Shown piece after piece: positions 31,600 through 47,751 of a stretch of DNA of 64,000 bases (position 1 is the first letter of the stretch; each line of letters starts with the position of its first letter). A program made the position numbers and the translations under genes. Below the pieces are notes generated by a model. That model was not told where the DNA came from. It did no database searches and saw only the letters and a program-made list of their open reading frames with translations. The DNA is from Candidatus Omnitrophota bacterium (GTDB lineage: Bacteria > Omnitrophota > Gorgyraeia > Zapsychrales > Fredricksoniimonadaceae): contig JAGWKL010000001.1 of assembly GCA_028865345.1 (NCBI GenBank), positions 63,296-127,295 on the forward strand, given 5' to 3'.

Positions 31600-33015
31600 C
31601 TATGGAGTTGCACTGGCTGCAGAAGAACTCTTGCCTGGCGTGATGATGTGCGGCGTCAGGAAAATGATCACTTCTTTCCTGGTCTTCACCGGGTTGGTGT
31701 TCTTAAATAACCACCCCAGCAAGGGGATGTCCCCCAATAAGGGGATCTTGTTGGTGGTAGTCACCAACTGGTCTGTAATCATGCCCCCGATGACTAAAGT
31801 TTGGCCGTCCTTGATCATCACATTGGTCTCGACCTCTTGATTGCTCGTCTCAGGGAATGGATTGTTCTGAACGGTAATCGTTTGCTGAAGCGTCGAGATC
31901 TGCGGATGCAAATCCAATGTAATAAATCCTGCGTTGTTCACATGCGGTGTCACCTCAAAATTAACACCAATAGGTAATGGGGTAAAACCTGTTACTTGTT
32001 CCTGCCCCGTACTCGAATTAAAAGAATAGTTCGGTACCGGATATTCCAGGCCGATGTTGATCTTGGCCTTTTGGTTGTCCAGCGTCACGATACGCGGGTT
32101 GGAAAGGATTTTGGTCGTGGTACGGGTGCTCAAATATTGCAGGGTCGCCTGAAGCTGGCTGGCATTGATGGTGCCGTACGTAAAGGAACCTGCCGTCGGC
32201 GTCGTGGCCAACGAAGTGCTGGTGGCAGGGAACAGCGCATTACCGGAGCCGCTCGAAGGGACAAAACCTTTCCATGGTTTGTTCGAAAAAGGAAAATACG
32301 TCGGCACGGACCCGCCTGAAATGGTGCTCGTAAAGCCGTTGGTCCAGTCGATCCCCAGGTTCTCGTTATCGCTCAGGTCGGTTTCAACGATCTTGGTTTC
32401 GATCGACACCTCCGGGGTTACCGTGTCAATGGATTTGATGACGCCCCCGATGAGCTCCAAATTACTTTCCAGGTCGCGCACGATGATGGAATTGGTCCGC
32501 GTGTCGTAATTGATGAATCCCCTCCTGCTGACCAGTTTATCGATGATCTTAAGCACGTCCTCGGCTTTGGCATAGTTGAGCGTATAGGTCCTGGACACCA
32601 ACGGCTCCTGGGCCTGCAGAACGGCGGCATTCTCGCGGTATTTCTTCAGATTATCAATGCTCATCACGGTGATGATGTTGCCCTTGCGGTCAAAACCGTA
32701 CCCGTAGGTGGAAAGGATCACATTCAGCGCCCTTTCCCACGGCACGTCCTTGAGTTCGATGTTGACGACCCCGGTCACATCCGGGGCGGCCACGATGTTC
32801 ACCCCGCTTTTAAAGGCCAGCACCTTCAATACGTTCCTGATATCCGCGTCCTGGAAATCCAGGCTGACCAGCCCCCCCTCGGGCGAAAGATCGGCCTGGG
32901 CTGTCCCATGCACGGCGGCAACAGCGGCGGCCGCGGGCCCGTCGGCCCAAATCTTTTGGCCCCAGGTTACGGCCGTCATCAACAGGGTCAGGATAAAAAT
33001 GGCCTTGAACATCAC
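31600..33015 (-). CDS. pilQ: Type IV pilus secretin PilQ
   Basis: Signal peptide, N0/N1 domains, and a C-terminal secretin domain ending ...VIIFLTPHIITP. Confidence 0.85.
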   Translation of the reverse strand: MMFKAIFILTLLMTAVTWGQKIWADGPAAAAVAAVHGTAQADLSPEGGLVSLDFQDADIRNVLKVLAFKSGVNIVAAPDVTGVVNIELKDVPWERALNVILSTYGYGFDRKGNIITVMSIDNLKKYRENAAVLQAQEPLVSRTYTLNYAKAEDVLKIIDKLVSRRGFINYDTRTNSIIVRDLESNLELIGGVIKSIDTVTPEVSIETKIVETDLSDNENLGIDWTNGFTSTISGGSVPTYFPFSNKPWKGFVPSSGSGNALFPATSTSLATTPTAGSFTYGTINASQLQATLQYLSTRTTTKILSNPRIVTLDNQKAKINIGLEYPVPNYSFNSSTGQEQVTGFTPLPIGVNFEVTPHVNNAGFITLDLHPQISTLQQTITVQNNPFPETSNQEVETNVMIKDGQTLVIGGMITDQLVTTTNKIPLLGDIPLLGWLFKNTNPVKTRKEVIIFLTPHIITPGKSSSAASATP

Positions 33016-33356
33016 GTTCCTCCGTTTTTAATTTTCAAAACAAATCTCCGAGGTCCCTTTGAAAACTCCACCTGGTCAAAACTGATGGCCATGACCGTAT
33101 AGGGCCCAAGCTGATCGCCGATCCTGACGACCCTGCCGTTGACGATGGCCATATTGTTCCCGGAGGCGTCCGTCACGATCCCTTCCAGGACCAGGTCATT
33201 CACCGATAAATCTTCATCGTAGGTGACCACCATGCCGGCCGAAGACACTAAAGGTACAAAAGGATCCCGCTTACCGTGATCATCATACACGAAATTCTGT
33301 TGGGCATATACTGAATTCGCTGATAAAAATAGGAACGCCAGGATCAATAGTCTCAT
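33012..33356 (-). CDS. pilP: PilP-like pilus assembly lipoprotein/periplasmic protein
   Basis: Signal peptide, an RDPFVPL motif, a small beta domain, and operon position. Confidence 0.55.
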   Translation of the reverse strand: MRLLILAFLFLSANSVYAQQNFVYDDHGKRDPFVPLVSSAGMVVTYDEDLSVNDLVLEGIVTDASGNNMAIVNGRVVRIGDQLGPYTVMAISFDQVEFSKGPRRFVLKIKNGGT

Positions 33357-33976
33357 AGCTTTTGGGACACCGCCCTGTCCGCCAGAATCAGGTCAATGGT
33401 CAGGGAAAACTCATGGACACGGGGGTCGCTGCCTTCATTTTGAATAATGAAATCCTTGATGATAAAAAAGAGGTTGTCATTTTCCAGCCTGCTCAGGAAA
33501 CGCCCGAAGTTATGGTACCCGCAACGGGCCTTGACCAGGACAGGCAAGGTATAATACTGGGCGCCGGCGGCTTTTGCCAGAGCTTTCTTGCCGTCCCATT
33601 CAGGGTCCAGCTGGTCGATGGCCACCCCGTATTCGTTGGCCACATTGGAAATGGTCCCCAAAATGGCGGAAACGTCCATGGTCGTGCGCACCTTGTCGCT
33701 GAGGGCCGTAAACCGGCCCCGGGTGGCGGCGAGGTCCTTTTTAAGCAGGCCGATCCGAGCATAATCGCTCAAAACCTGCCGGATATTTTCGGAAGTGTCC
33801 TTGATCTGGCTGTTCGTATTGCCTATGGCGCCAAGCTGGGGCATGGCCACAAAGACCGCATCCAACAAAACGATCAGGATGACCGCGACGATCAGCGCCC
33901 CGTAACGGGTCTGCTCGCTTTGCTTATTGAAAGACTCAATGAGGCCTTTAACGTTTTTTATGTTGTTCATGCCCAT
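33353..33976 (-). CDS. pilO: Type IV pilus assembly protein PilO
   Basis: Single TM, coiled coil, and a PilO-like periplasmic domain. Start approximate. Confidence 0.7.
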   Translation of the reverse strand: MGMNNIKNVKGLIESFNKQSEQTRYGALIVAVILIVLLDAVFVAMPQLGAIGNTNSQIKDTSENIRQVLSDYARIGLLKKDLAATRGRFTALSDKVRTTMDVSAILGTISNVANEYGVAIDQLDPEWDGKKALAKAAGAQYYTLPVLVKARCGYHNFGRFLSRLENDNLFFIIKDFIIQNEGSDPRVHEFSLTIDLILADRAVSQKL

Positions 33977-34556
33977 CTTCCAGATTTGCAACGATGGAAA
34001 AATTCGTAACCTCGACGGAATTATCCCGGCTTCCCTGGATGGTATCATTCTCAAGGGAAGAAAACCCCTTCATAAAATTTTTGTCCTTTTTCAGGGAGGA
34101 CACGAACAGGCTGACGGTATTGATCTCATTGCGGGTTTTGGAAACGACGCTGCCCTCAATGGTCAAGCCCGCTTTGTCCAGCGTCATTTTCCTGATCCAC
34201 AGCCCCCGGGGCAGCGCGTCGCTGACGGCATTGAATTTAGGCGCCCAAAGCAGCGATCTATCGACCGTCACGCCGGAAATTGCGCTGATCTTCTTTTTCA
34301 GATCCGCGGTCTCCTTGTGAACGGCGTCCACGGCGGTTTTCTGAAGCGCAATCCTGCGCCACTGTGCATCATAAAAAGACAGCCGCCCCATCCCCGCCAG
34401 CCAGACCGCCCCCAAAAGAAGGTGAACCCCAAGCAAAAGGACAACCACCCCGCCGCCGACGCCCAAAAGCACATCCCTGGGGATGTTGACCGCCCAGGCG
34501 TCCGCCGCCTTGCCGCTTTTTCTTGCCCCTTCCGGAATCAGATTAATGTCAATCAT
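33948..34556 (-). CDS. pilN: Type IV pilus assembly protein PilN
   Basis: MIDINLIPE... N-terminus, single TM, PilN/FimA-like. Confidence 0.75.
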   Translation of the reverse strand: MIDINLIPEGARKSGKAADAWAVNIPRDVLLGVGGGVVVLLLGVHLLLGAVWLAGMGRLSFYDAQWRRIALQKTAVDAVHKETADLKKKISAISGVTVDRSLLWAPKFNAVSDALPRGLWIRKMTLDKAGLTIEGSVVSKTRNEINTVSLFVSSLKKDKNFMKGFSSLENDTIQGSRDNSVEVTNFSIVANLEDGHEQHKKR

Positions 34557-35604
34557 TTGAAAGCCCCAATCCCACGGCCACTCCAAACTGTGCGGCATGG
34601 GCCCGGATGTCGCCCTCCAGGGCCGCCCCTGAAGGCAGGCCGCCCAACGGGTCCCAGATCTTCACCGGCAGCCCCAGGCCTTTTTCAAACACGCCTTCAA
34701 TGCCGCCCAGCGCAGACCCGCCCCCGGCCAGGAAAAGCTCATTGACGCGGGCGTGTTTCTCGGTCGTAAAATAATCGAGGGACAGGCGTATTTCGCTGAT
34801 CAAATTACTGATCGGCACCTCGCAGGCGTCCATGATCTGGGCCAATTTATCCTCCGGCCGGCGCTTGAGCGCCTCTGCCGCTGCGGCATCCAGGCCCAGG
34901 GCATTGGCGATCTTTTGGGTCAACTGGCTGCTGCCGATGAAAACGTCTCTCGTAAAACGCAGCGTTCCGTCCTTAAAGATCATGAGGCTGGCGGCCGACG
35001 CGCCCATGTCCAGCAGGGCCCGGGCGCCGCCCGACGGCGTTGACGCCGGCCCCAGGCGGCCGAACGCGTTGGCGGCCGCAATGGGATTAAGCGTCACGCG
35101 GTTTAATTCCAGGCCCGCTTCTTTAAACAATCTCAACCGTTCGTCCACCATCTCTTTCTTGACCGCGGAGAGCAGAACCGGCATTTTTTTGTCATTGCCT
35201 TCAGGGTCGAGAATGGTGCAATCCGTGTAAATGCTTTTAGGGTCAAAAGGGAAATATTTGTCCAATTCATAGACATAAGATTTTCTCAAGTCTTCCAGGG
35301 ACATGCGGGGAAGGTCGATAAAGCGCATCAGGGTCCCTTTGCCGGATACCGACGAGACCAGAAGCTGGTTGCTCCAATGCAGGCGTTCGACGGCCTTTTT
35401 TAAGGCTGCCGGCGCCCCCTGGGCCTCCAGAGTCTCGACGGCCCAATGGCGTATTTCACTCCCCCCGCCGGCCGCCGGGCCCAATTCCACCGCTTTGACG
35501 GCGGAGGCGCCGATATCAATGCCGATGACTGCAACAGCTGGAGGTTGGGGGATCAAACGATTGACGAACAAAAGATACTGCTCAAATAACTTCTTAAAAT
35601 CCAT
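34549..35604 (-). CDS. pilM: Type IV pilus assembly ATPase-fold protein PilM
   Basis: Actin-like/FtsA fold with VIGIDIGASAVK... 351 aa. Confidence 0.85.
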   Translation of the reverse strand: MDFKKLFEQYLLFVNRLIPQPPAVAVIGIDIGASAVKAVELGPAAGGGSEIRHWAVETLEAQGAPAALKKAVERLHWSNQLLVSSVSGKGTLMRFIDLPRMSLEDLRKSYVYELDKYFPFDPKSIYTDCTILDPEGNDKKMPVLLSAVKKEMVDERLRLFKEAGLELNRVTLNPIAAANAFGRLGPASTPSGGARALLDMGASAASLMIFKDGTLRFTRDVFIGSSQLTQKIANALGLDAAAAEALKRRPEDKLAQIMDACEVPISNLISEIRLSLDYFTTEKHARVNELFLAGGGSALGGIEGVFEKGLGLPVKIWDPLGGLPSGAALEGDIRAHAAQFGVAVGLGLSND

Positions 35605-35752
35605 GTAAATATTTTAACAGATTCCAAAAATGAAAATAGCATTATTCAAATTTTTTTGCCTTGAAACCGGTTTAAAATCCGTTGTAAAGTCCCCGTGAAG
35701 CGGCTTGCGCGCCCGGCCATCTTCAGTTATACTTTGTATACAGATAAAATCC
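35605..35752. promoter_or_regulatory. AT-rich divergent promoter region between pilM (minus) and the Flp-like Cys-rich protein gene (plus)
   Basis: 148-nt AT-rich spacer between divergent start codons. It marks the boundary between the all-minus core block and the accessory locus. Confidence 0.4.
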
Positions 35753-36859
35753 ATGCGTAAAAACGGCCAATCCATCATCGAGTATATCTTGATTGCAATC
35801 CTGGTGATTTTAGCGATTGCATTTATGGGCACCTATGTGCTGCGTTCGGTCAACGCCCATTTCAAAATGTGGGACGAGGGCGTCCGGGATTCCGCCGAAG
35901 AGATCATCAACCAGGCCCCGATCGCCGATGTGCCTAATATTTCATTGAACTGCTCGTGCTCGCAGACCGTGGGGACCTGCGGAAGCAGCACGCCCGGCTC
36001 GCAATGCGCCGCCAATGAGAAAATAATAACCTGGAACTGCAATCCCCAGGGATGCAACGGCGCGCAGGGAAACAGCACCTGCGAACTTGACCCCAGCTGC
36101 TGTAATACGCCTGCACCCCAGGGCTGCGGCAACCATCCTCTTCCTTTCGTTCCTGCGACCAAAGGATATATAGGGACCCCGATGCCATGCCCGACAGGGC
36201 TTTCAGGCACATGTTACCAGGGGCTTGGATCCGGCAGTCCCTGCTATTACGGCCAGCAAACCTACGGCTATGCCTGTGGTTCCAATACCAGCCAGGTCTG
36301 TGTCCCGGACAATTCCTGCCCGAACCCCACATGCACGGGATTTATTCTCTTTTCGAATTCTACCACCTATTGCCCGGGCGCCACCAGCGGCCTGCTTCAA
36401 GACACGCCGAACTACTATGTGGGCAACAATTCTTCGGCTTGTTCAGGCTCTGGAAATTGCGAATTGTATTGTAATGCGCCCTATTCCGTCACCCCGGCGA
36501 ATCCGACCAATCCGACGGAAGCTTCCTGCTCCATGGAATTCAACGTAGCGGCCTCCTGTTGCGGTCCTGATGGTTATGACCCTTCATGCCAGTACAGCAC
36601 CAATAATACAAGCAACCCCACCTGTGCCAATGGCGGATGCTCATGTTGGGCATCCGGCAGCCATCAGATCACTAACAACGAAAGTTTTTCAGTCTGCCTT
36701 GACCCAACCACCAAGCTCTCTTCCGTCTATGCCCTGCCGGTCGGGTCTACGGCGACCAATACCTACAAGAGCCCTGCGTTATCCCCCACCGACGGCGGAT
36801 GCGGAGACCCGGGCCTGCCTTCCCAGACATGCAGCATCTCTGTTAATTTCGGATCGTGA
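35753..36859 (+). CDS. Cysteine-rich (~31 Cys) Ser/Thr/Asn/Gly-rich protein with a Flp-type class III (prepilin) signal peptide
   Basis: N-terminus MRKNGQSIIEYILIAILVILAIAF carries a G/xxxxEY Flp-pilin processing motif with Glu at +5. About ten N-x-S/T sequons. No match to an ordinary pilin length. Confidence 0.6.
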   Translation: MRKNGQSIIEYILIAILVILAIAFMGTYVLRSVNAHFKMWDEGVRDSAEEIINQAPIADVPNISLNCSCSQTVGTCGSSTPGSQCAANEKIITWNCNPQGCNGAQGNSTCELDPSCCNTPAPQGCGNHPLPFVPATKGYIGTPMPCPTGLSGTCYQGLGSGSPCYYGQQTYGYACGSNTSQVCVPDNSCPNPTCTGFILFSNSTTYCPGATSGLLQDTPNYYVGNNSSACSGSGNCELYCNAPYSVTPANPTNPTEASCSMEFNVAASCCGPDGYDPSCQYSTNNTSNPTCANGGCSCWASGSHQITNNESFSVCLDPTTKLSSVYALPVGSTATNTYKSPALSPTDGGCGDPGLPSQTCSISVNFGS

Positions 36860-37920
36860 TGGAGCCCATGAAACACCCCCTTGTCGCCGGCGTTGACGAT
36901 CTTTCATTAGACCAAAGGAAGTTTGATCCATCCCCCCTGGACATCGAACGCATCTGCCGCTTCTTTGGTTTGGGAAAACTCAGGCACTTCGAAAAAGAAA
37001 AAAACATCGTGGTTTCCCATTCCAATTTTTTCGCCTTTGTCCGCACAAACCAGGGGGGCTACGCGCTGAAATTCTACCCGCCGCAGGCGGCCCGGGGCAT
37101 CAGCGTTGAATATGCCCTCAACCGCCTCCTGACCGGGCATCGTTTTGCCACACCTTTAATGCACGCGGGAAAAGACGGCCGTGCCTGGGTTTGCGGCTGC
37201 GGCCGTCTGGCAGCCTGTTATTCTTATATCGACGCAGCGCCGGCATGGCAAAAGATCGGGCAAAAAAAGACCATCCGCGCCATCAATGCCTCGATGTTGT
37301 TGCTGAAGCGTATTTTATCCGCCGCCGGAGAGTCCCTTCCGGTGCAAAAACAGAAAACCTTCGGCGCACAGACCCATGACCTCCTGCGCCTTTCCCGCGA
37401 CCTGCGGCCTTATGACCAACAAGAAACGATCGAGGCCTGCCTCCTGGCGGCCTGCCGCGCCTATCAGCGGCATGAAGGGCTGTTTGTCCGCCGGAGGCTC
37501 CATAACAACGCGGGTTTGACCAACTTTCTCGTCGACAGAAAAACCGTTTACACCCTTGACCTGGGCCACGTGCGGGAAGATTACGCCATAAGCGATCTGG
37601 CCGGCATGGTCATTTCCTGCGTTTTCTTTGACACGCCGCCCCAAACAATCCGGGCCATCATTGAAGACTATTTTGCCCAACATCAAATGACACAGGACAG
37701 CAGCGCGGCCCTTGCCGTACTTGTCCAGACCGGGCTTATCAAAGAATATCTGAAAAACATCCAACGGGAAAAATCACTTGGATCTTCCCTGTATCCGCCC
37801 GGACTTCTGGAAGCCTACAGGTCTCTGCTCGCCGAACGCAAGAAATCCATCAGGACTGTTTTAAAGAAAGGGCTTCTGAAAGGGACGGGGCGCCGGGGAC
37901 GGGAAACAGCGCTGATTTGA
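36859..37920 (+). CDS. Protein kinase-like fold phosphotransferase (APH/ChoK/HSK-II-like)
   Basis: Catalytic-loop-like HNNAGLTNFLVD and a DLG (DFG-like) motif. Start ATG overlaps the upstream stop (TGATG), indicating coupling. Confidence 0.5.
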   Translation: MEPMKHPLVAGVDDLSLDQRKFDPSPLDIERICRFFGLGKLRHFEKEKNIVVSHSNFFAFVRTNQGGYALKFYPPQAARGISVEYALNRLLTGHRFATPLMHAGKDGRAWVCGCGRLAACYSYIDAAPAWQKIGQKKTIRAINASMLLLKRILSAAGESLPVQKQKTFGAQTHDLLRLSRDLRPYDQQETIEACLLAACRAYQRHEGLFVRRRLHNNAGLTNFLVDRKTVYTLDLGHVREDYAISDLAGMVISCVFFDTPPQTIRAIIEDYFAQHQMTQDSSAALAVLVQTGLIKEYLKNIQREKSLGSSLYPPGLLEAYRSLLAERKKSIRTVLKKGLLKGTGRRGRETALI

Positions 37921-38959
37921 GTGTCGAGCGGATCATGGTTGTCATGGGGACTTCCGATAAATAGCTGGGGCACCGGCTGCAGGGAACATCGCTGCCGGGC
38001 TTGATCAATCCCAGCACAGTCATTTTCATGTCCAGGTATCGCTTGCTTTTCATGACCGCTTCAAGCCCGTCCTGGAACACATTGCCCGTATCCCCGAAAT
38101 AATTGGCGCAGCATCCGGTCATTTTCCCGTCCCAGTTGATTTGCGGGGCGGTCCACAACTGATAGCAGGACAAATACAGCGACAGGCCGTATTGATCGCT
38201 GTATTCCTGCCTTGTGGCGCTGTTGGACCCGCTCAGGTAACGGATCAATGCCTTGTTTTTGACCGGCGCATACTCCGTCCTTGAATTGAGCTTGATCTTG
38301 AAGACCATCTTCAGTTCCCGCGCCAAGGTCATGGCCTTCAGCACCACATGTTCATTATGCGCAAACGGGATGAATTGCCACTCCAGTTCAGGCAGGGCGC
38401 TGTCATATTTTTCTTTATAAAAGTTAAGGGTTTTGATGTTGTTGATGACCTGCGTGAAACTCCCCCCCACCCGGTATTTCGCATAGCTCTCTTCATCCCC
38501 TCCGTCGATGGCGACGTTGAGGTAACGGAAACGGTATTTGACCAGGTCTTCGCACATCGCAGGGCTTACCCTGTTGAAATTCACGCCCGAACGGGCGGTC
38601 AGGGTGACCCCTTGCTCGCAGGCGTCCTTGATGATGGCCCCCAGCTCCGGGTTAAGGAATATCTCGCCTGAATGGGACAATTCTATGGTTTTGACCGACG
38701 GGTTGGCGCGGATGAAAGCCGCAAAGTCCTTGGCGCGCAAATATCCCCATCCCAGCACCCCGTTCCTTTTTTCCGGACGGGTGTGGGGGTCGCACACAGG
38801 ACAGGCCAATTGGCAGGCGCTGCAGGCGCTCAATCGGACAAAGGTAGGCGGAACATAGCTTAACAGGTCGGCTTTCGTGATCATCTGATTAAAGTGTAAA
38901 CCATAACGGCGCCCCTGTAAAGCGGCTTTGCTAAAGACGCTTGAAATGGTAAAAACCAT
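37850..38959 (-). CDS. Radical SAM protein (start approximate)
   Basis: CQLACPVC (CX3CX2C) motif plus a C-terminal Cys cluster. The track ORF N-terminal extension overlaps the upstream gene and was discarded. Confidence 0.7.
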   Translation of the reverse strand: MVFTISSVFSKAALQGRRYGLHFNQMITKADLLSYVPPTFVRLSACSACQLACPVCDPHTRPEKRNGVLGWGYLRAKDFAAFIRANPSVKTIELSHSGEIFLNPELGAIIKDACEQGVTLTARSGVNFNRVSPAMCEDLVKYRFRYLNVAIDGGDEESYAKYRVGGSFTQVINNIKTLNFYKEKYDSALPELEWQFIPFAHNEHVVLKAMTLARELKMVFKIKLNSRTEYAPVKNKALIRYLSGSNSATRQEYSDQYGLSLYLSCYQLWTAPQINWDGKMTGCCANYFGDTGNVFQDGLEAVMKSKRYLDMKMTVLGLIKPGSDVPCSRCPSYLSEVPMTTMIRSTLKSALFPVPGAPSLSEALSLKQS

Positions 38960-40403
38960 TTCCCCCGTTTGAAACTTTATAATCCTGAAAGAACCCTTTG
39001 AGTTGAATTCTGGGAGGCAGCTGGATCCCGGAAGGCGGTTGAATTCCGTCAGGCATTTGGTTTTTGTAGACCAAAAATACCGCGTGCACCCGCGGTTTAA
39101 GGAGACCGTTTTGGGCCAGGAACTCCGCCGGGTTTGTCCCCTCCCGTATATTAATGACCCTGCGCGTATCCCCCCTATAATAGTAGCTGAAATCCTGAGG
39201 ATCGGCATAGGACACAATGAGATCGTTGGGACCTGCCGCCCGCATTAATTCTTTTGCGGTCGAGCGCCAGTCCTGCTGGGGAAAGCGGGCGATTCCGGTG
39301 AAATACAAATAAATATTAAAAATGGCGATCATAAGCATCGCCGCCAGCATCACGCTGCGCAAGGGGCCGGAGACGGCGCCCAACCGGCTGCTGATCATCA
39401 GGATAAGCGGCACCTGCAAAAATCCGACATACCGCGCCTCAAGATAAACGTGGACACAGGTATAATCGAACAGAAAATAGGCCAGAAGCGCCACGGCAGC
39501 CCATAAAAAGACGGCCCGGTCATCGGCTCTCCGGGGACTATCAACCAGGAAAAACACCAGCAAAAAGACATATAAAAAACAATTGATCTCCCAGAGCCCC
39601 AGGTGGAAAGAATATTGGGCCCAATTTTCATGCGTCCAAATTTCCAGGCCGCTGCCTATGATGAAGAAAAAAGAGCTTAAAGCAAAATGCAGGTAATCAA
39701 AGGCGGCCGTGGGGCGGATCAGCCCCCAGGTTTCTTTGGGGGAACACAAAAAAAGGACCACCCACGGAATACAAAAACCAAGTATGATGAGCTGCCCGGT
39801 GAACCATGGCCTGCGCCTGGCCCCGGTCAATATAAAAATGATGTTTTGCGCCGCCAGAAACAAAAACCCCGAATACATCGTATAGCAGCATAATATGGAT
39901 GTTGCGATATACCATCGATGCGGGGCCTTCCCCTGATTCCTGAGGAAACGGAAAAAGAACAAAAACGATAACGCCTCCAGCAGCCAGAAGGACGCGTACA
40001 TCTTGGCGTACTGGGCATAATGGACGGCAAACGGCGAGAAAGCCAGCAGCGCCGCGGCGATAAGCCCGGCATTTTTATTAAAAAGTTCCTTGCCCAGTTT
40101 ATAAATGACAATGATGGTCAGGCCGGAAAAAAGCGCCGAAGGAAACCTCAGCGCCCATTCGCTCGTGCCGAAAAGGCGCGTCCATAAATGGAGAAACGCA
40201 TAATAAAGCGGCGGAAACGAGGAAGCTTTCAGCAGGACTACGGTCTCCCAAAAAGAATGATTGATCCTCACCGCGGTGGTCAGCTCATCATCGCCCAGGC
40301 TGGGCGCCCCCAGATGATAAAACCGGAGCGCAAGCCCCGCGGTCAGCAGGGCCGCCATGACCCAAAAATCCCCCGGCATCTTCAAAAACCGCCGTTGCAG
40401 CAT
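38931..40403 (-). CDS. GT-C fold glycosyltransferase, family 39/83-like (PMT_2 / ArnT-like) membrane protein
   Basis: More than 10 TM helices. A first-loop DE motif (GDDELTT) and an FPPLYY block are typical of PMT/ArnT-type lipid-sugar-dependent transferases. Confidence 0.8.
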   Translation of the reverse strand: MLQRRFLKMPGDFWVMAALLTAGLALRFYHLGAPSLGDDELTTAVRINHSFWETVVLLKASSFPPLYYAFLHLWTRLFGTSEWALRFPSALFSGLTIIVIYKLGKELFNKNAGLIAAALLAFSPFAVHYAQYAKMYASFWLLEALSFLFFFRFLRNQGKAPHRWYIATSILCCYTMYSGFLFLAAQNIIFILTGARRRPWFTGQLIILGFCIPWVVLFLCSPKETWGLIRPTAAFDYLHFALSSFFFIIGSGLEIWTHENWAQYSFHLGLWEINCFLYVFLLVFFLVDSPRRADDRAVFLWAAVALLAYFLFDYTCVHVYLEARYVGFLQVPLILMISSRLGAVSGPLRSVMLAAMLMIAIFNIYLYFTGIARFPQQDWRSTAKELMRAAGPNDLIVSYADPQDFSYYYRGDTRRVINIREGTNPAEFLAQNGLLKPRVHAVFLVYKNQMPDGIQPPSGIQLPPRIQLKGFFQDYKVSNGGNGFYHFKRL

Positions 40404-40412
40404 GTCGCCTTT

Positions 40413-41135
40413 CTAATGAAACCTCAACTCCGATACAAAACGGCCCGGATCGATCTTCTTCATAAGCCCCTTCTCCTGTCTCATGGACAACAGAAGAAAG
40501 ACATCCCTGGCCAGCCGGTTGAGCCTTCCCATAAAATGGTAGTGCGTTTTCCCGAATTTTCTTTTCCGGCAGGCGATGTCGACCTCGCAAAGATTGATCT
40601 TTTTTTCCCTGGCCAGCAAAGGCAAAAACCGGAACGCCTCGCCCCTGTCTTTGATATCATTGACGATCTTGGACCGGTAGGCCCTGAAGGAGGAATTGAT
40701 ATCATAATACCCCAACCCGAACAACAGGCAGATCAGCCTCTTGGTGATCTTGCGCCTTTCTTTCTTGCCATTCACCACGTCGTAACCCATGTTGATTTTT
40801 TCCACCAGTTTCAAAATGTCCTGCGGGTCATGTTGGAGATCGCCGTCCATGGTGATGATCACCTCCGAACGGACAAAATTCATCCCGACCAAAAGCCCCA
40901 TGGTCTGGCCGAAATTCTTTTTAAGTTTGACCACATTGACGGACTTGTCCCGCTGGTGGATGGCGCATAACTCCCCATAAGAGTTGTCTTTGCTGCCGTC
41001 TTCCACGAAGATGATTTCATATCCCCCCCGCAGCGATTTCAGGCTGTCTTTCAGGCGCTCATAAAGGATGCCTATGTTCTGCTCTTCGTTGTTGACAGGA
41101 ATGACGATGGACAAATCCATGGCTTTTTGCGTCAC
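40413..41135 (-). CDS. GT2 polyprenyl-phosphate sugar synthase-like glycosyltransferase (DPM1/ArnC/GtrB-like)
   Basis: LSIVIPVNNEE...FVEDGSKD...MDGDLQHDP, the DXD-type GT-A motifs of Dpm1-like enzymes. Confidence 0.8.
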   Translation of the reverse strand: MTQKAMDLSIVIPVNNEEQNIGILYERLKDSLKSLRGGYEIIFVEDGSKDNSYGELCAIHQRDKSVNVVKLKKNFGQTMGLLVGMNFVRSEVIITMDGDLQHDPQDILKLVEKINMGYDVVNGKKERRKITKRLICLLFGLGYYDINSSFRAYRSKIVNDIKDRGEAFRFLPLLAREKKINLCEVDIACRKRKFGKTHYHFMGRLNRLARDVFLLLSMRQEKGLMKKIDPGRFVSELRFH

Positions 41136-42001
41136 AACTGCCCGTAGCTCGACAGCGAGATGCCGTATTGCTTGAACACTCCCCGGGCCCCCAAACAGCG
41201 CAATACCTCCATCTCCCGTTGTCTCGCGGCATTAATATAATATTTCTGCCGGTTAAGCACAGGGTCTTGCCATTCCTCATCGATATAGCCGGGATGGCAC
41301 ATCAATTCCGTGGTCCCCTTTTTTAAACCGGACAATACCCTTATGCAGCCTTCCAGCGTCATACGTCCTGTGACGGACGCCCCGTAAAAATAGTCCGGGG
41401 ACTTGACATGATAGGTCTCCAGCATCCGCCGGTTGATCATGGAGCAACAGGACAACAACAGCGCCGTGTAGGATTGCTTTTTAAATACCCTCCCCAGGCC
41501 GGCTCTTTGCCCCAGATAAGGAATTTCATTGATGCTGCGTATTTTTAAAATGCCGTATTCCCCGGCGATTGTCAAGAGGACTTTAAACAAAGGACTGAGG
41601 ATGTGGACATGCTTTTCACTGTCTAAATGCGTGATCCGGACCCCCCGGGAGAGGGCCTTTTCAATTTGGGCCCTGCATTCAACGGCAAATTCCTCCAAAC
41701 ACCTTTTGCCCGTATAACACAGCGCGGCCAGACGGTTGACATTCCCGTGGAAAAATCCCCCCTCGCAAAGGCTGCCGACGCCTTCGACGGGAGAAACAGG
41801 CCTGCCCCGCAGCACATTGATGTGAAGACCGACCCCCAAACCCGGATTGTCCCTGATTGATCTGACGGCGTCCTCAAAACCGGGCATATTCACCATCAAT
41901 GACGCGCTGGTCAATACGCCGCTGTTAAACAACTCTATTATTCCCTTATTAATGCCGCGGCTGAGGCCGAAATCGTCGGCATTGATAATGAGCTTCTTCA
42001 T
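41132..42001 (-). CDS. YdjC/ChbG-family carbohydrate deacetylase
   Basis: N-terminus MKKLIINADDFG, a YdjC hallmark. Internal start chosen. Confidence 0.8.
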   Translation of the reverse strand: MKKLIINADDFGLSRGINKGIIELFNSGVLTSASLMVNMPGFEDAVRSIRDNPGLGVGLHINVLRGRPVSPVEGVGSLCEGGFFHGNVNRLAALCYTGKRCLEEFAVECRAQIEKALSRGVRITHLDSEKHVHILSPLFKVLLTIAGEYGILKIRSINEIPYLGQRAGLGRVFKKQSYTALLLSCCSMINRRMLETYHVKSPDYFYGASVTGRMTLEGCIRVLSGLKKGTTELMCHPGYIDEEWQDPVLNRQKYYINAARQREMEVLRCLGARGVFKQYGISLSSYGQL

Positions 42002-42723
42002 AAACGGCTTTTTACTTTTCGGCGGCCATAGGTTGTTATCAACATACGCCGCATGACGGCAGGGACCTGGATCTCGCTTTTGAAGGTCCGGTGCGGGATG
42101 CCCCGTGCAATGGCCAATGCACGCAAAAGTTTCTTGTCTTTCTTCAAGGCCGCGGGCACCTCCTGCGCCAATGCCAGCATGGCTTCTGATAAGAACGGGA
42201 AAATAAATTTGCACCCGTGAACCTCGGCCACGCGCAAATGAAGGGCCTTTTGCCGCCTGGCGTCCTGTAGGCGCTCCTTAAGCCTTTGCGGCCTTACTTG
42301 CAAAGCCTCATTACCAAACCACTGATCAGAACCCATGCCTGAAATCAACACGTTCCCCGCAGTCTTGGGATCGTATTTCTTGAGGGCCGCATACACGACC
42401 CCCAGGTCCAGGTCCGCCATAGGCTGCTCCGTCAAAGCGGCAAGCCCCCCAAAAGCGGACAAGAATTCCGCAGGTTTCACATGAAGGATGCAATGTTTGA
42501 TCCCTGCCTGCCGGGCGGACTCAGCGGCCCCGGCAACGGTGAGAGGGTTAAAATCGTCAAATTGCACCGTCACCGCCGTCACTTGGGCGCCGCAGCGCCG
42601 GGCCATCAACGCCATCAGCATGGAATCGAACCCGCCGCTGAACATGATCGCCCGGCGGGTGCCGGCCATCTTTCCCATGGCCGACTCCAGTGTCCGCTCC
42701 ACCAAAAAAGGAAGATCCCTCAT
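41998..42723 (-). CDS. PP-loop superfamily ATP pyrophosphatase (asparagine synthetase C-domain / QueC / LarE-like)
   Basis: A SGGFDS PP-loop close to the N-terminus. No C-terminal Cys cluster, so probably not QueC proper. Confidence 0.6.
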   Translation of the reverse strand: MRDLPFLVERTLESAMGKMAGTRRAIMFSGGFDSMLMALMARRCGAQVTAVTVQFDDFNPLTVAGAAESARQAGIKHCILHVKPAEFLSAFGGLAALTEQPMADLDLGVVYAALKKYDPKTAGNVLISGMGSDQWFGNEALQVRPQRLKERLQDARRQKALHLRVAEVHGCKFIFPFLSEAMLALAQEVPAALKKDKKLLRALAIARGIPHRTFKSEIQVPAVMRRMLITTYGRRKVKSRL

Positions 42724-43697
42724 GCCTTCACGGCCCTGTTGTATATTTCCATTTTCTCGCCGACCATCTTATTGCGGGCCGTCCAGCGGCAATTAATGCA
42801 CTCATGATAGTTTCTAAAGGGGGCTTCCCCCTTTAGGGCCGAATTACGCGTACGCGTATACAGTTCCGATTGCCAGATGTCTTTGAATGATGACTTAAAC
42901 ACATTGCCCATCGATGAGCGGTGCGTAAAAATACAAATATTCACATCGCCATTAAGGCGTATCGCGCTGAAAAACCATCCGGTATAACACGCAGGCCATT
43001 CTCCTTCCAACTCGGTTTTCTCCACCTGGTCGGGCAATATCATATGACGGTTATGGTCGCTGGGCTGAAATCCTTTGATCTGGACCTTGTCCGCTCCGAG
43101 CTTGCGGACCAGGGCCTGCGTCCTTGGCAAACTGGCTTCATTTAAACGGTTTAAAACGAAAACCACTTCAATGCAAAAATTCGGGTTGAATTGCGGCCTG
43201 AGCCTGGCCAGTTCCCTTATATTTCTTATGACCTTCATAAAAAGGTCTTTGCCCACCAAGGCGCGGTAACTTTCCCGGTCCGCTTCCCCCAGATTGATCA
43301 CAATGCGGTCTGCCCGCAAAATATCGCGGCAGCGTTCGATGGGGAACGTTGCGTTCGAATACACAGTGACCGAAAAGGACCGTTCAAGATGGCATAAAAG
43401 GTCATAAAAGCGGGGATGGAATATCGGGTCCCCCACGCCGGAAAGGTGGATCTTGTCAACCTGGAGATCGGCGCAGTCCTGCACCAATCTCTCGATCAAA
43501 TCATACGGGAGATGGTTCTTGCCCGAAGGGCGGATGGCGCTGCCCGGGCCGTAATACCAGCAATACTGGCATTCGAGATTGCACAGGTCCGTCAACTGTA
43601 ACTGGACGGTGGCGGGGCCGATCAGGGCGCAGCCGGATTCAATGCTTTTAAGGCGCAGGAACAATCTTCTCTGTCGCTCACGCAGGTCCAGGATCAT
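42720..43697 (-). CDS. Radical SAM protein
   Basis: CNLECQYCWYY (CX3CX2C followed by aromatics). ATGA overlaps on both sides. Confidence 0.8.
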   Translation of the reverse strand: MILDLRERQRRLFLRLKSIESGCALIGPATVQLQLTDLCNLECQYCWYYGPGSAIRPSGKNHLPYDLIERLVQDCADLQVDKIHLSGVGDPIFHPRFYDLLCHLERSFSVTVYSNATFPIERCRDILRADRIVINLGEADRESYRALVGKDLFMKVIRNIRELARLRPQFNPNFCIEVVFVLNRLNEASLPRTQALVRKLGADKVQIKGFQPSDHNRHMILPDQVEKTELEGEWPACYTGWFFSAIRLNGDVNICIFTHRSSMGNVFKSSFKDIWQSELYTRTRNSALKGEAPFRNYHECINCRWTARNKMVGEKMEIYNRAVKA

Positions 43698-44839
43698 ACG
43701 CCCCCGGCCGCCGCACGGCGGACTTTCTCATCCAGCATTTTATTGATCGGCACATAACTGCAGTACCTGCATTCCTTCCATTTGGATGAGCAGGTATGTA
43801 TGCCCCGGGCCGCTTCCTTAAGCGTATCGTGCAGAAAATCATTATCGAACCAGATGTCTTTGAACCGCCGTTCGTTGACATTGCCCGCCACACAGACCCC
43901 GACGTTGTCACAGGGCGCCACCACCCGCCCTTTCTCGTCGATATTGGCATAGAACCATCCCACATGGCAATGGATGCTGCCGCCGGTCGTATCATAAAAC
44001 AACAGGCGGTCATTGTGCATCGGCGAACGCGACAGGGAATCGACGTTTCTCAATACCTGCCCGCTTTGAAGAATGTGGTGCAGGTGTTTAAGGTCGTGCC
44101 TGAAGCCGTACGGGGTCCGCAGAGCTTCGTCGACGGTATGGAATAAAGACGCCAGTCCCTCCTGGGAAAAAACCAGGTCCTTCATCTCCTGGGTCGCCTT
44201 AAAAAAACGGACGACGACCTTGTCTATCCGGCGCTGATGGGCCATGTTCAAAAAGGCGCCCAATTCCTGATAATTGTGGTCATAGACGACGAATGACAGC
44301 ACGATCTGGGGTTTGCCGCGTTTGGAGCGCATGGCCAAAAGCAAGTCCAGGTTATGCAGCACGCGTTCCATGGAGGTGTGCTTGCCATGGACGCGTTTGA
44401 ACGATTCTTCGGTCATGGCGGAAAAATTCACGGTCAGCTGGTCGGCAAAACACAGGCCCGGCAGATGGTCCGCCGCAAAGCCCAGATGGCTGTAGGCGAT
44501 AAGCCGCATGCCCAGCTCTTTGACCTTGCAGAAAGCCCTCTCCCAATACGGATAAAGCGTGACTTCTCCGCCCTCAAAATTGATCTCGTCGACGCCGATC
44601 TCCCGGCAGTCTTCCAGCACCCCTTCGAGCACCTCATAATCCAGCAATTTCCTTTGCGGCTGGTCTTTGACCAGAGGAGAAAAATACCAGCAGAACTCGC
44701 ATTTGTAGTTGCAGGAATTGATGATGTGGATGTTGACGGACTTGGGGCCGATCAACGGCTTGCCGAGGATGGAACTCCTGATGCGCAAGGCGTCCCTGAC
44801 CCCGGTATCTGTGATGCTTGACATGCGGCTCTCAGCCAT
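43694..44839 (-). CDS. Radical SAM protein with C-terminal Cys-rich (SPASM-like) region
   Basis: CNYKCEFCWYF, plus a C-terminal ...CHVGW...PCDNVGVC...CSSKWKECRYC. It is a tandem paralog of 42720-43697. Confidence 0.8.
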   Translation of the reverse strand: MAESRMSSITDTGVRDALRIRSSILGKPLIGPKSVNIHIINSCNYKCEFCWYFSPLVKDQPQRKLLDYEVLEGVLEDCREIGVDEINFEGGEVTLYPYWERAFCKVKELGMRLIAYSHLGFAADHLPGLCFADQLTVNFSAMTEESFKRVHGKHTSMERVLHNLDLLLAMRSKRGKPQIVLSFVVYDHNYQELGAFLNMAHQRRIDKVVVRFFKATQEMKDLVFSQEGLASLFHTVDEALRTPYGFRHDLKHLHHILQSGQVLRNVDSLSRSPMHNDRLLFYDTTGGSIHCHVGWFYANIDEKGRVVAPCDNVGVCVAGNVNERRFKDIWFDNDFLHDTLKEAARGIHTCSSKWKECRYCSYVPINKMLDEKVRRAAAGGV

Positions 44840-45593
44840 GCCCCTGCCTCTTTTTGGATCCTGATAAAATTTCAGAAAACAACATGACCCTCCAGCCTTT
44901 CTTTGCTTTTAATGCCGCGACATAATCCAAAAAACGTATCAATTCCCTGCGCCGCAGCGCTCCCCTGAAGTCCTCATGGTGCGTCAATACGCCGGACAAT
45001 GCCTGGCGGTCGACCTGCCTGGTCAGGCCGGCCAACACCTGCGCGGCCCGGCAAATGCTCTTGCGGCCCTGATCGTAGCGGGTGAAGGAAATCAAGGCCG
45101 GTATTTCGATCCATGCCCTTCTCCTCCCCGGCCGCCTGCTCCCGGCCGAAAAGATCTTGAAGCCCTCCCCGGAAAGCGCTTGCAACGTACGTTCATCATA
45201 CCCGTGATACGGCGGCACGAAAGCCGGCGTAAAAAGATCGCCGAAGGCCCGCCGCATGCTTTCCAGGCCCCGCCTGATGTCTTCCCGCTGATTTTTTAAA
45301 GAACGCCCGGGCCCGAATTCAAATTTCGTGCCGGCATCGACGCTGTGATTGTCATGCGCCCATCCGTGCTGGACAATGTCCAGCATGAAGGGTGTTTTCT
45401 CCTTGGCGCGGCGCAAAAATCCCACCAGCCCCCGGTCCATCCTGCCCGGGATGACCGCATGCACGACCGGAATGCCCCTATCCATGGCTGAATCAAAAAA
45501 GTAACGGAATTCGTCATCCAGCCTCCACACATCATCATTACGAATAAAAAGCCGTGCACTCATTATATAATCAAGTATACTATTTTCTACCAA
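44832..45593 (-). CDS. CE4-family polysaccharide deacetylase-like protein (NodB fold)
   Basis: IRNDDV (DD motif) and HGWAH (HxxxH). Confidence 0.55.
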   Translation of the reverse strand: MVENSILDYIMSARLFIRNDDVWRLDDEFRYFFDSAMDRGIPVVHAVIPGRMDRGLVGFLRRAKEKTPFMLDIVQHGWAHDNHSVDAGTKFEFGPGRSLKNQREDIRRGLESMRRAFGDLFTPAFVPPYHGYDERTLQALSGEGFKIFSAGSRRPGRRRAWIEIPALISFTRYDQGRKSICRAAQVLAGLTRQVDRQALSGVLTHHEDFRGALRRRELIRFLDYVAALKAKKGWRVMLFSEILSGSKKRQGHG

Positions 45594-45596
45594 ACA

Positions 45597-46787
45597 ATGC
45601 GCGTCTTATTCCACTACACCCACAAGCAAACCCTCGGGCACACCACCCGCAGCATCTCTTTTGTAACAGCGCTTTGCCGCCTTAAAGCCGATGTCCTCGT
45701 ATTGCAAGGGGGCCTTGTGCAGCCTTTTGTCCGTTTCCCCTCCGGCTGCCGGGTCATGGATATCCCTTTTCCTTTTGACGCACGCACCAGTTTTCAGGCC
45801 CACGCTGTCCCTGTATCCGCAAGCCGACGCGCTCAATTTATCCTCAAAGCGGCCGCTGAATTCTGCCCTGATGTTTTCATCACCGAATTTTTCCCTTTCG
45901 GCAGATCGTCCTATTTGCCGGAACTGCTGCCTCTGTTGCGCTACCTGCGTAAAAAAGGTACCCGTATCATGGCCAGCATCGGATATCCTTTGATCATCGA
46001 CCTGGATCGTTTCAGCGACCCGAAATTCGCCGCCCTGCAAAAAGCCGTATTTGCTTTCTACGACAACTTTCTCATCCATACGCCGCAAGAGCTTGAAACC
46101 CCGTATATCCAAAAAACCATCCCCTCCGAGCCCCTGGCCCGTTCCTATGCCGCACTGATGAAGGACCTGAAGGCCCGGATCGACTATACCGGCTATATCT
46201 TCCCGGAAAAAATCATCACCGGCGATTCCTTGCGGCCGAATTCCACCGCCCCTTCCATCGTCGTCAGCCGCGGGGGCGGCGCCGTGTATCCGAAACTCAT
46301 GACCACCGCCATCGAAGCCCAGCGTCTCCTCGGGGGCGTCCATACGGTGATCGCCTGCGGTCCGGCCACGACCGCGGCGGAAAAAGCCTTGTTCACCTCC
46401 TGCCTCGATCCCCAGGACAACGGCCGGGTGGTCCTTTCGGACCTTCTGGCGGACCTTGACGACCATCTGCGCACGGCAAGGGTTTCGGTGAGCCTGTGCG
46501 GCTACAATACCTGCGTCCAATTGATGCGTTACGGGACGCCCTCGGTGATCGTCCCCTATCACAACACACTTGCCTCCAACCCGACCAATGACCAGATGGC
46601 CCGCTCCCGGTTGCTTGCCGAACGCTTCTCTGGTATCATCCTTGATTACGATACGATGACGCCGCAAAGTTTGTCCGACGCTATCAAAGAACAAATGTCC
46701 AAACCCCGCCCTGCGCCCGCCCCCCGGGACTGGTTCAACGGGGCTGAAACGGCAGCGCGTCTTGTGCTTGAAGGTAGGGCAAATTAA
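45597..46787 (+). CDS. GT-B fold glycosyltransferase (GT1/GT28-like), paralog A
   Basis: Two-Rossmann pattern and the shared block FITEFFP. It is a paralog of 61504-62721. The antisense 362-aa track ORF inside it was rejected. Confidence 0.6.
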   Translation: MRVLFHYTHKQTLGHTTRSISFVTALCRLKADVLVLQGGLVQPFVRFPSGCRVMDIPFPFDARTSFQAHAVPVSASRRAQFILKAAAEFCPDVFITEFFPFGRSSYLPELLPLLRYLRKKGTRIMASIGYPLIIDLDRFSDPKFAALQKAVFAFYDNFLIHTPQELETPYIQKTIPSEPLARSYAALMKDLKARIDYTGYIFPEKIITGDSLRPNSTAPSIVVSRGGGAVYPKLMTTAIEAQRLLGGVHTVIACGPATTAAEKALFTSCLDPQDNGRVVLSDLLADLDDHLRTARVSVSLCGYNTCVQLMRYGTPSVIVPYHNTLASNPTNDQMARSRLLAERFSGIILDYDTMTPQSLSDAIKEQMSKPRPAPAPRDWFNGAETAARLVLEGRAN

Positions 46788-47751
46788 ATTTCTTCAAAAA
46801 CCCATGATAGGCAAAGCACCCGGGGCAATGGCCCTGGGCCGCATCTTCCGCATGCCGTTGACGGACCAGATCCAGTTCCTGCGGCAATTGTCCCTGATCT
46901 CCCAGTTTCCCGGCAGGCTCCATGTAGAGGCAAGGAAAAACATTCCGGCGCGAATTAATGAAAAGGGATTTGGCCGGGGTTTCGCAGGCGCGGATGCATT
47001 TGCGGCCGCCGGCCAAAAGCACCATCATGGCCTTGACCAGGCGGTTGTCAACCCCCGCGTAATTGTCCTTTAACATGGCCTCCACCTGTCCGCGGACATC
47101 TTCAACCATGGCAGGCGTCAGGGAGGCCAGTTGGCCTGCCTGCGGCATCTCGTGGCGGTGATAGTAATCATCGACGCCGGATTCCATGATCTTGGGTGAA
47201 AACCGCGCTTTAAAGCGCCGCGCCATACGGTAAACATCGCCTAACTCGGCGTAATTCAGGCGGTTGATGGTGAATTTAAATTCCAGGATGATGTCCTTGC
47301 CGAAATGGGCGGCCAGCCACTCGATGGTTTTTAAGGATTTCCCAAAAGCCCCCGGCCCCCGCAGGCGGTCATGCACCTCTTGTCTTCCGTCGATGCTGAT
47401 CCCCATGTGCATCCCGCTCAAATCCTTGCCGTAGGCGGTCATCACGCGGCGTACGCCTTCGAAATACGCCGCGTTGCTGTAAACGCCGAAGCCCGAAATC
47501 TGGCCGCGTTGGCGGAAGAACGACATCGCTTTCAATACGCGCCCGCAATTCCTGTTGAGAAAGGGTTCTCCTCCGGTGATGGACACAAAATAAACCTCAT
47601 AACGCGCAAGCAATTGGCGCATCATGCGCACGACCAATGACGAGGACATCTCATGGCGGTCTTTTTCCGCCCATATCCCGCAGTGCTGGCAATGGAGCTG
47701 GCAGTGATTGGTGATTTCGATGGTTATATCGTTAAGCAGAGGTTTTTTCAT
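46735..47751 (-). CDS. Radical SAM protein with SPASM-like C-terminus
   Basis: CQLHCQHC, plus a C-terminal ...FPCLY...GHCPGCFAYHG. Confidence 0.8.
   Translation of the reverse strand: MKKPLLNDITIEITNHCQLHCQHCGIWAEKDRHEMSSSLVVRMMRQLLARYEVYFVSITGGEPFLNRNCGRVLKAMSFFRQRGQISGFGVYSNAAYFEGVRRVMTAYGKDLSGMHMGISIDGRQEVHDRLRGPGAFGKSLKTIEWLAAHFGKDIILEFKFTINRLNYAELGDVYRMARRFKARFSPKIMESGVDDYYHRHEMPQAGQLASLTPAMVEDVRGQVEAMLKDNYAGVDNRLVKAMMVLLAGGRKCIRACETPAKSLFINSRRNVFPCLYMEPAGKLGDQGQLPQELDLVRQRHAEDAAQGHCPGCFAYHGFLKKFNLPYLQAQDALPFQPR

Follow-up and report, generated by a model that had tools for sequence, protein, structure and literature searches.

Pseudoenzymes and repurposed folds are well documented for the Hanks-type kinases, with which the available pseudokinase reviews are concerned (PMC4718504, PMC7586955), but hardly for the bacterial aminoglycoside phosphotransferase/choline kinase (APH/ChoK) fold. 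Here, we describe a gene of that fold in a 64,000-nucleotide stretch of a Candidatus Omnitrophota genome (assembly GCA_028865345.1, contig JAGWKL010000001.1, positions 63,296 to 127,295 of the forward strand), which as a whole we call the window. Its product is a protein of 353 residues in which the catalytic Asp has been replaced by Asn, and it belongs to what we call the HxN family. This subfamily, uncharacterised until now and confined to Omnitrophota, shares a known fold but has a remodelled active site. A closer formal analogue than the class III/IV lanthipeptide enzymes is the machinery of the class V lanthipeptides and thioamitides, in which a stand-alone APH-fold kinase, LanK (LxmK or RosK), works with a HopA1-like lyase, LanY, and in which LanX/RosX/TvaE is a kinase-fold cyclase for aminovinyl-cysteine (AviCys) that has lost all catalytic, Mg, and ATP residues (PMC12291118). 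LanK keeps the catalytic Asp and LanX has lost all sites, whereas the window family has lost the Asp only.

The other useful point of reference lies outside the fold. HER3 and JAK2 JH2 are ATP-binding pseudokinases in which the catalytic Asp has become Asn and, like them, the window protein carries a single catalytic-loop substitution and keeps the Lys, the Asn, and the DFG-type Asp. However, these are Hanks-type eukaryotic domains that act by dimerisation or allostery, whereas the window protein has a bacterial small-molecule-kinase-type fold and extra invariant His residues. In the searchable literature we found no description of an Asp-to-Asn change with retained ATP binding in the APH/ChoK fold.

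The original prediction that this gene encodes an APH/ChoK-type kinase fold was confirmed. The window protein has the bilobal kinase fold and matches the Pfam APH profile (PF01636) with 38.4 bits against a cutoff of 23.2 (E = 1.6e-9, profile positions 15-230 of 239). Structural matches include homoserine kinase type II (2PPQ, score 24.6), the Bacillus subtilis YtaA/CotI-type protein (2Q83, 24.0), the spectinomycin kinase APH(9) (23.4), N-acetylhexosamine 1-kinase (23.2), and Escherichia coli YihE (20.3), followed at ~19-22 by aminopropanol kinase, amicoumacin kinase, and choline kinases; APH(3'), Mph, and AmiN are also found among them. At the level of sequence these relationships are distant. 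A single-sequence phmmer search of the PDB with the kinase-fold protein gave no matches, and a profile search of the PDB gave only YtaA, a weak match that is useful solely for residue correspondence. The sole NCBIfam match was to the CotS model and was sub-threshold (17.5 bits against a cutoff of 172.7, E = 0.0015). The window protein had no match at E <= 0.01 to the homoserine kinase II (HSK-II) models TIGR00938 and NF003558 (thrB_alt), which are matched only by distant outgroups, and below cutoff; for want of a model match, an identity as HSK-II was rejected. The nearest sequence outgroups are proteins of ~310 residues that score as HSK-II/CotS-like, and the window protein may best be regarded as a cytoplasmic offshoot of this branch. 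It is nevertheless well separated from the ThrB2 (2PPQ) and CotS-YtaA (2Q83) members of PF01636, to which it shows only 13-15% identity. The window family has Asn for the catalytic Asp, "SHSN" for the P-loop "GxxN," and an invariant His for the Asp at DFG+3, and its context of radical-SAM/sugar clusters with adjoining pilus genes is unrelated to threonine synthesis or to spore coats.

Given such structural matches as APH(9), APH(3'), Mph, and AmiN, one might think of an antibiotic-resistance or self-resistance phosphotransferase for aminoglycosides or macrolides, and the DegT, radical SAM, glycosyltransferase, and deacetylase neighbours do loosely recall aminocyclitol pathways. This we regard as very unlikely indeed. 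No NCBIfam APH resistance model is matched (CotS being the only hit), the catalytic Asp is absent, and the family, far from being mobile, is phylum-specific and keeps a syntenic position next to housekeeping and pilus genes. The candidate was rejected for the missing resistance model match and for this synteny and phylum specificity.

With 70 homologs at 42-60% identity in a word-index search, many of them annotated as Candidatus Omnitrophota, the kinase-fold gene can be taken as real. When 1.84 billion cluster representatives (clusters at 50% identity) were searched exhaustively with a profile, only 39 clusters were returned at E <= 1e-30, beyond which scores drop sharply to ~40-60 bits, the level of HSK-II-like proteins; by these sequence scores the family is compact and isolated. 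Among GTDB species representatives, all 11 of 11 matches are metagenome-assembled genomes (MAGs) of Omnitrophota or MAGs labelled Planctomycetales, and the family is thus restricted to Omnitrophota-type MAGs.

At the active site, HNNAGLTNFLVD covers residues 215-226 (nt 37501-37536), and the loop within it reads HNNAGLTN where the Brenner motif, HxDxxxxN, has the catalytic Asp. Three independent alignments place Asn217 at the position of that Asp. In the YtaA profile alignment, "LHNNASLTN" stands opposite "CHQDYGTGN" of YtaA, and "TLDLSH..DYalsDL" opposite "VIDLDT..DLpirDL"; in the alignment with the HSK-II-like outgroups, 15 of 16 have H-x-D at the Asn217 column; and HND, HYD, or HSD stands at this position in tandem paralogs from other genomes. 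The Asp of the H-x-D loop had originally been read as Asn from the window alone, and a DLG had been noted downstream; the alignments bear out the former, and the latter is the D234-L-G-H237 segment. By the usual mark of a pseudokinase, the missing canonical catalytic Asp, the protein is a candidate through Asn217, and its first description as an "atypical kinase or pseudokinase" was a fair one for a kinase fold with Asn in place of this residue.

Conservation was tallied over 137 distinct family sequences and 16 outgroups; some of the former are the same gene present both as a database protein and as an open reading frame (ORF), and the counts are therefore approximate. At position 217, 119 of 135 family sequences (88%) have N, 10 have D, and 6 have another residue, against D in 15 and E in 1 of the outgroups. 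The predicted ATP and Mg ligands (beta3 Lys, alphaC Glu, loop Asn, and DFG-type Asp) are 99-100% conserved: K71 in 133/133 (outgroups K 11, R 5), E84 in 131/133 (outgroups E in 12 of 16), N222 in 134/135 (outgroups N in 15 of 16), and D234 in 136/136 (outgroups 16/16). Two histidines are peculiar to the family. H54, within the "SHSN" that replaces the "GxxN" of the outgroups in the beta1-beta2 loop, is present in 131/133 members and 0/16 outgroups; H237, at DFG+3, is present in 134/136 members and in none of the outgroups, 9/16 of which have D there. From the alignment and the secondary structure, both would lie in loops flanking the gamma-phosphate/acceptor site. Because the Mg/ATP ligands are fully kept while the "base" is lost and two invariant histidines are gained, the pattern argues for an active site that has been remodelled, not decayed, and thus for a selected, working site of altered type and not a relic.

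The pattern extends to the deeper-branching members (27-32% identity to the window protein), which have HSN, HTN, HAN, or HCN together with both histidines. A divergent member, P0114, keeps HGD and has neither histidine, and P0116 has HAD at the catalytic loop. Tandem arrays of two to three kinase-fold paralogs occur at L001:8001-11096 and L002:8001-10159, where the first copy, beside the Cys-rich gene described below, is HNN and the later copies have the canonical Asp (HND, HND, and HYD); other second copies read HNC (L004) or HCN (L006/L033). A second kinase-fold copy was not found by tblastn within the window. In neighbor-joining (NJ) trees the HxD tandem copies nest within the HNN crown group, the HYD copy of L002 being sister to the HNN copy of L002, which suggests recent duplications followed by a change from Asn to Asp, with the limit that bootstrap values are mostly <50 and too low to date the D/N changes. 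As the HND and HYD copies nest inside the HNN clade, the site appears to be still compatible with the canonical Asp. Taken together, the family-wide change from Asp to Asn, the two histidines, the kept Mg/ATP ligands, and the paralogs that regain the Asp form a natural series on the contribution of the "catalytic base."

Our preferred reading, which we hold tentatively, is that of an Mg-ATP-binding, non-canonical transferase in the adjoining pathway, serving a prepilin-type protein. Since Lys71-Glu84, Asn222, and Asp234 are conserved, Mg-ATP would be bound through them. The acceptor site would have been rebuilt, with Asn217 for the catalytic Asp and new histidines in the P-loop (His54) and at DFG+3 (His237), and the transfer would probably be slow or base-independent, either onto an acceptor that does not need the Asp or with His237 or His54 in its stead. 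The acceptor itself would be a small-molecule, sugar, or aminocyclitol-type intermediate of the adjoining radical-SAM/PP-loop/deacetylase/glycosyltransferase pathway, whose product may end on, or be needed by, a prepilin-type protein, in the window the co-transcribed Cys-rich Flp-like protein. Several points weigh against this. The change from Asp to Asn at this position is a classic inactivating one, of which the engineered D189N viomycin kinase (PDB 8i80) is an example, and phosphate transfer may be absent altogether. The low NJ bootstrap leaves the direction of the N/D changes insecure, and the role proposed for the histidines is drawn from their alignment positions only. No nucleotidyltransferase that would use a sugar-1-phosphate was seen in the cluster, and the substrate is not deducible.

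A true pseudokinase, in which ATP is a structural or allosteric ligand and nothing is catalysed, would account for the loss of the Asp, and such a protein could hold the substrate of, regulate, or act as a scaffold for the neighbouring radical SAM/SPASM enzymes or, where there is one, a canonical HxD paralog. We consider this possible, if somewhat doubtful. In most loci no HxD paralog lies within 10 kb, and the four other catalytic/Mg-ATP residues are kept at ~99-100% down to 27% identity alongside two new invariant histidines, as in a selected catalytic centre and not one under relaxed constraint. The LanX-type proteins, by contrast, have lost every one of these residues (PMC12291118).

The same residue pattern might also be taken to mean that the fold has been repurposed for other chemistry, such as nucleotidyl (AMP) transfer or transfer to a non-hydroxyl acceptor, with His237 and His54 as new catalytic residues or metal ligands. 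Three positions have changed together (P-loop G to SH, HxD to HxN, and DFxD to DLxH) while the Mg/ATP ligands were kept, and there is a precedent in the SelO-type enzymes, where the catalytic Asp is also absent and ATP is used nonetheless. We see only a slim chance of this: the fold search brought out no particular likeness to SelO or SidJ, and the N-to-D switches in the paralogs suggest that the canonical geometry is intact. A bolder proposal, which we think unlikely, is that HxN proteins are a new catalytic class in the APH fold, with His237 and/or His54 replacing the Asp or with nucleotidyl transfer or a non-hydroxyl acceptor, and that they would perform the ATP-using step of an undescribed, phylum-wide maturation pathway that puts an elaborate modification on a giant Cys-rich Flp-type pilin. 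Such a pathway would draw on some ten radical SAM enzymes, a PP-loop enzyme, deacetylases, transferases of the GT-B and GT-C types, and an A24 peptidase of its own, and would operate in ultra-small, possibly host-dependent Omnitrophota.

The gene directly upstream encodes this Cys-rich protein. Its stop codon TGA (36857-36859) and the ATG of the kinase-fold gene (36859-36861) have one base in common. For the kinase-fold ORF an alternative GTG start at 36856 was judged unlikely; the upstream ORF, which ends at 36859, starts at 35705 (TTG) or, more plausibly, at 35753 (ATG), and the public annotation of the same MAG (KGJ09_00585) likewise starts the protein at MRKNGQ, giving 368 residues. On the plus strand, sigma-70-like sites were seen only 5' of the Cys-rich gene, and no promoter-like or terminator-like site was seen between the two genes. 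They form a bicistronic unit, divergent from the pil genes on the minus strand.

For comparison, 51 loci were collected. In 23 distinct loci (about 23/31) the next gene upstream, in the same orientation, is a homolog of the Cys-rich gene, which bears out the operon that had been proposed for the two genes. The spacing in these 23 runs from -1 to +80 nt, with a median of ~15 nt and a single gap of +139 nt (L020, where the Cys-rich ORF includes an ambiguous base and seems to be frameshifted). The stop/start overlap is present only in the window and L023, and an overlap of 25 nt in L027 depends on a predicted TTG start. The translational coupling that was first proposed thus stands as regards the TGATG junction in the window and falls as a general feature: since close adjacency is kept in 23 loci and the overlap in only two of them, co-transcription is conserved and strict translational coupling is not.

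The Cys-rich protein has the marks of a Flp/type IV prepilin, namely a basic leader, a G/XXXXEY site, a hydrophobic helix, and an A24 peptidase in the genome. The predicted prepilin signal MRKNG/QSIIEYILIAILVILAIAF is conserved in 12 homologs, whose near-invariant N-terminus is MNKxGQSIIEYxLIAILVILGIVFMGPYVLRSVNAHFKLWDEG. At 368 residues the protein is far larger than typical Flp pilins, and it matches no Pfam or NCBIfam family. It contains ~8% Cys, with 15 invariant and 3 nearly invariant Cys columns in an otherwise fast-evolving region, which suggests a disulfide-bonded extracytoplasmic domain. An AlphaFold2 model was poor (pLDDT 53, too low for a fold search), and of its elements only the single long N-terminal helix (residues 8-54) can be trusted; with the beta strands predicted after it, the order would be that of type IV pilins.

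Several homologs of this protein vary in ways worth recording. Two tandem Cys-rich pilin-like genes of 344 and 513 residues occur at L002:5207-6241 and L002:6445-7986 (the same contig as L007); their N-terminal regions of ~130 residues are nearly identical and their C-terminal regions differ, which suggests a diversified exposed domain. In the homolog P0082 (539 residues), a large insertion in the alignment corresponds to a Hint/intein-type domain (PF05203), and the homolog at L001:6311-7957 (548 residues) has a long Gly-rich insertion (Gly_rich_2) between its conserved Cys-rich N- and C-terminal parts.

With such a neighbour, the kinase-fold protein had been said, as a speculation, to recall the logic of class III/IV lanthipeptides, in which phosphorylation, elimination, and Cys addition follow one another. 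This did not hold up: no lyase or cyclase is at hand, the kinase is of the wrong type, and the partner is a 368-residue prepilin-like protein. The analogy fails because LanKC and LanL are three-domain proteins (an N-terminal lyase, a central Hanks-type kinase, and a C-terminal LanC-like cyclase), whereas the window protein is a single stand-alone APH-type domain; an identity as LanKC/LanL was rejected for this wrong architecture. Pfam scans of plausible ORFs of >=180 residues across 23-63.6 kb of the window revealed no LanY/HopA1-like lyase, LanC-like, or LanD-like gene, and the first statement that no lyase or cyclase was evident therefore proved right. Class V systems have a lyase, a flavin decarboxylase (LanD), and a short leader-core precursor, none of which were found among the ORFs neighbouring the window gene, and the window system also departs from them in the catalytic Asp of LanK.

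More generally, the protein could be a Ser/Thr kinase acting on the Cys-rich protein before export, either for lanthipeptide-like elimination and Cys addition, for which the class V LanK would be nearest, or for plain phospho-modification. Cytoplasmic radical-SAM modification before export has precedents, such as the QhpC/QhpD system. Prepilin-type proteins, however, undergo co-translational membrane insertion through the signal recognition particle (SRP) and Sec and, because they are inserted during translation, the Ser/Thr/Cys-rich domain is not expected to be accessible to a cytoplasmic kinase. We accordingly give the protein-kinase explanation a very slim chance, as the protein lacks the catalytic Asp on which LanK depends (Asp221 in LxmK; PMC12291118), the scanned ORFs hold no lyase, cyclase, or decarboxylase of the kinds named, and the partner has a prepilin-type signal and Cys columns suggestive of disulfides. 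In addition, the Cys-rich gene is absent upstream in eight loci (L004, L011, L014, L028, L034, and L035, and probably L032 and L036) and in all distant members examined, and the radical-SAM/sugar genes are kept there.

It is these latter genes that accompany the family throughout. Almost every locus with enough DNA has a conserved downstream set consisting of a PP-loop gene, two to three radical SAM/SPASM genes, DUF2334, a GT28-like gene, a further radical SAM gene, and DegT, and downstream of the kinase-fold gene most loci have the same gene order as the core in the window. In nearly all loci the kinase-fold gene has a radical SAM/SPASM gene as its immediate neighbour, which is encoded on the same strand in L002, L003, L009, L011, L013, L016, L037, and L045. 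The pil arrangement of the window also occurs in L002, L005, L018, L022, and L023. Because the radical-SAM/sugar set is kept in loci without the Cys-rich gene (L004, L011, L012, L014, L034, and L035) and around distant members, the constant partners of the kinase-fold family are these radical-SAM/sugar-type genes and not the Cys-rich gene. Small Flp-like ORFs (G-x4-EY followed by a hydrophobic run) were found neither in the loci without the Cys-rich gene nor in those of the distant clades.

The distant members (27-32% identity, L046-L050) sit in the same type of cluster. L046 has a radical SAM/SPASM gene on either side of the kinase-fold gene, followed by an A24-like peptidase; L047 has the kinase-fold gene, a radical SAM/SPASM gene, and Peptidase_A24; L048 has the kinase-fold gene between two GT28 genes, with seven radical SAM genes, DegT, DUF2334, and a U32 peptidase-family protein; L049, an HGD member, has radical SAM genes, DegT, and an A24-like peptidase; and L050, an HAD member, has ten radical SAM genes, U32, two GT28 genes, DegT, DUF2334, and an Asn-synthase-like gene. 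Of the A24-like proteins, those of the window, L046, and L049 are homologous over their full length at 25-32% identity, and the copy in L047 aligns over its N-terminal ~100 residues only; L014 gave a further phmmer match. The link to prepilins would therefore hold at the level of the whole cluster, through the A24 peptidase, the adjoining pil genes and, in the HNN subclade, the Cys-rich gene.

As side observations on the A24-like proteins, they form a cluster-specific subfamily of ~285-300 residues (the window gene, L046:4580-5473, L047:8600-9487, and, on the minus strand, L049:5373-6224) with a common "GDAKLF" motif, and their co-occurrence with the kinase-fold gene extends to distant clades without the Cys-rich pilin gene. 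L048 and L050 also contain Peptidase_U32-family genes together with B12-binding radical SAM genes. The Peptidase_U32 family includes O2-independent hydroxylases such as UbiU/UbiV, and the combination hints, by analogy, at anaerobic hydroxylation and methylation chemistry in the pathway.

In the window, the radical-SAM-rich cluster spans 37850-62721 and contains eleven Radical_SAM ORFs, four of them with SPASM, in addition to two GT28-like genes, DegT, an AMP-binding-like gene, a PanE-like reductase, and an FAD/Trp-halogenase-like protein. It is bracketed by the pil genes on one side and the A24 prepilin-peptidase-like gene on the other. Its glycan genes (an ArnC-like GT2, a PMT_2 GT-C, and a YdjC/HpnK-like deacetylase) count in favour of the proposed pathway. 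The group IV pilin of Pseudomonas aeruginosa is reportedly arabinosylated by the GT-C TfpW, and the window resembles such pilin glycosylation islands in having a pilin gene beside a GT-C and sugar-precursor genes, with pilus assembly genes adjoining. To our knowledge, these islands have neither a kinase-fold protein nor an array of some ten radical SAM enzymes, and the window pilin differs in being a 368-residue, Cys-rich, Flp-type protein.

The coordinates of the features discussed are collected below. The Omnitrophota are uncultured, and their surface appendages are believed to serve in attachment to hosts (PMC10066038); the main Omnitrophota survey does not describe this cluster, its kinase, or the Cys-rich pilin; nor did we find literature combining DUF2334 with radical SAM. 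The kinase-fold gene marks a cluster that is unusually rich in radical SAM genes and is connected both with prepilin-type processing and with a giant Cys-rich Flp-like protein; knowing the product of the cluster could bring to light a pilus or surface decoration of a new kind. Interest in the family would rise substantially if the altered site is catalytic, or if the cluster builds a new pilin modification.

Features of the kinase-fold gene and its surroundings (positions are those of the window; residue numbers are those of the kinase-fold protein)
Feature	Position	Strand	Remark
APH/ChoK-fold protein of the HxN family, 353 aa, cytoplasmic, without signal peptide	36859..37920	+	
TGATG stop/start overlap of the Cys-rich and kinase-fold genes	36857..36861	+	Read directly from the sequence
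S53-H54-S-N56, P-loop equivalent (beta1-beta2 loop) with family-specific His	37015..37026	+	Loop from model secondary structure
K71, beta3 ATP-binding lysine (ALKFYP)	37069..37071	+	
E84, alphaC Glu	37108..37110	+	
H215-N-N217-A-G-L-T-N222, catalytic loop; Brenner motif HxDxxxxN with D to N	37501..37524	+	
D234-L-G-H237, Mg-binding Asp (DFG equivalent) and family-specific invariant His at DFG+3	37558..37569	+	
Cys-rich pilin-like protein, 368 aa	35753..36859	+	N-terminus MRKNG/QSIIEY, then hydrophobic helix (Flp-type class III signal)
pilQ (secretin), 114-aa ORF, pilO, pilN, pilM	31600..35604	-	Pfam Secretin, PilO, PilN, PilM_2; divergent from the Cys-rich gene
Radical SAM/SPASM gene, convergent with the kinase-fold gene, 3' overlap of 71 nt	37850..39217	-	Pfam Radical_SAM and SPASM
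GT-C (PMT_2), GT2 (ArnC-like polyprenyl-phosphate glycosyltransferase), YdjC/HpnK-like deacetylase	38931..42214	-	
Conserved core: PP-loop (Asn-synthase-like), two radical SAM/SPASM, DUF2334, GT28-like (+), radical SAM, DegT aminotransferase	41998..48850		
A24 prepilin-peptidase-like membrane protein, far end of the radical-SAM cluster	59584..60483	+	Pfam Peptidase_A24

A last observation concerns the 3' end of the kinase-fold gene, where the convergent overlap with the radical SAM/SPASM gene occupies 37850-37920; the last ~16 residues of the kinase-fold protein are unconserved and are modelled with low confidence.

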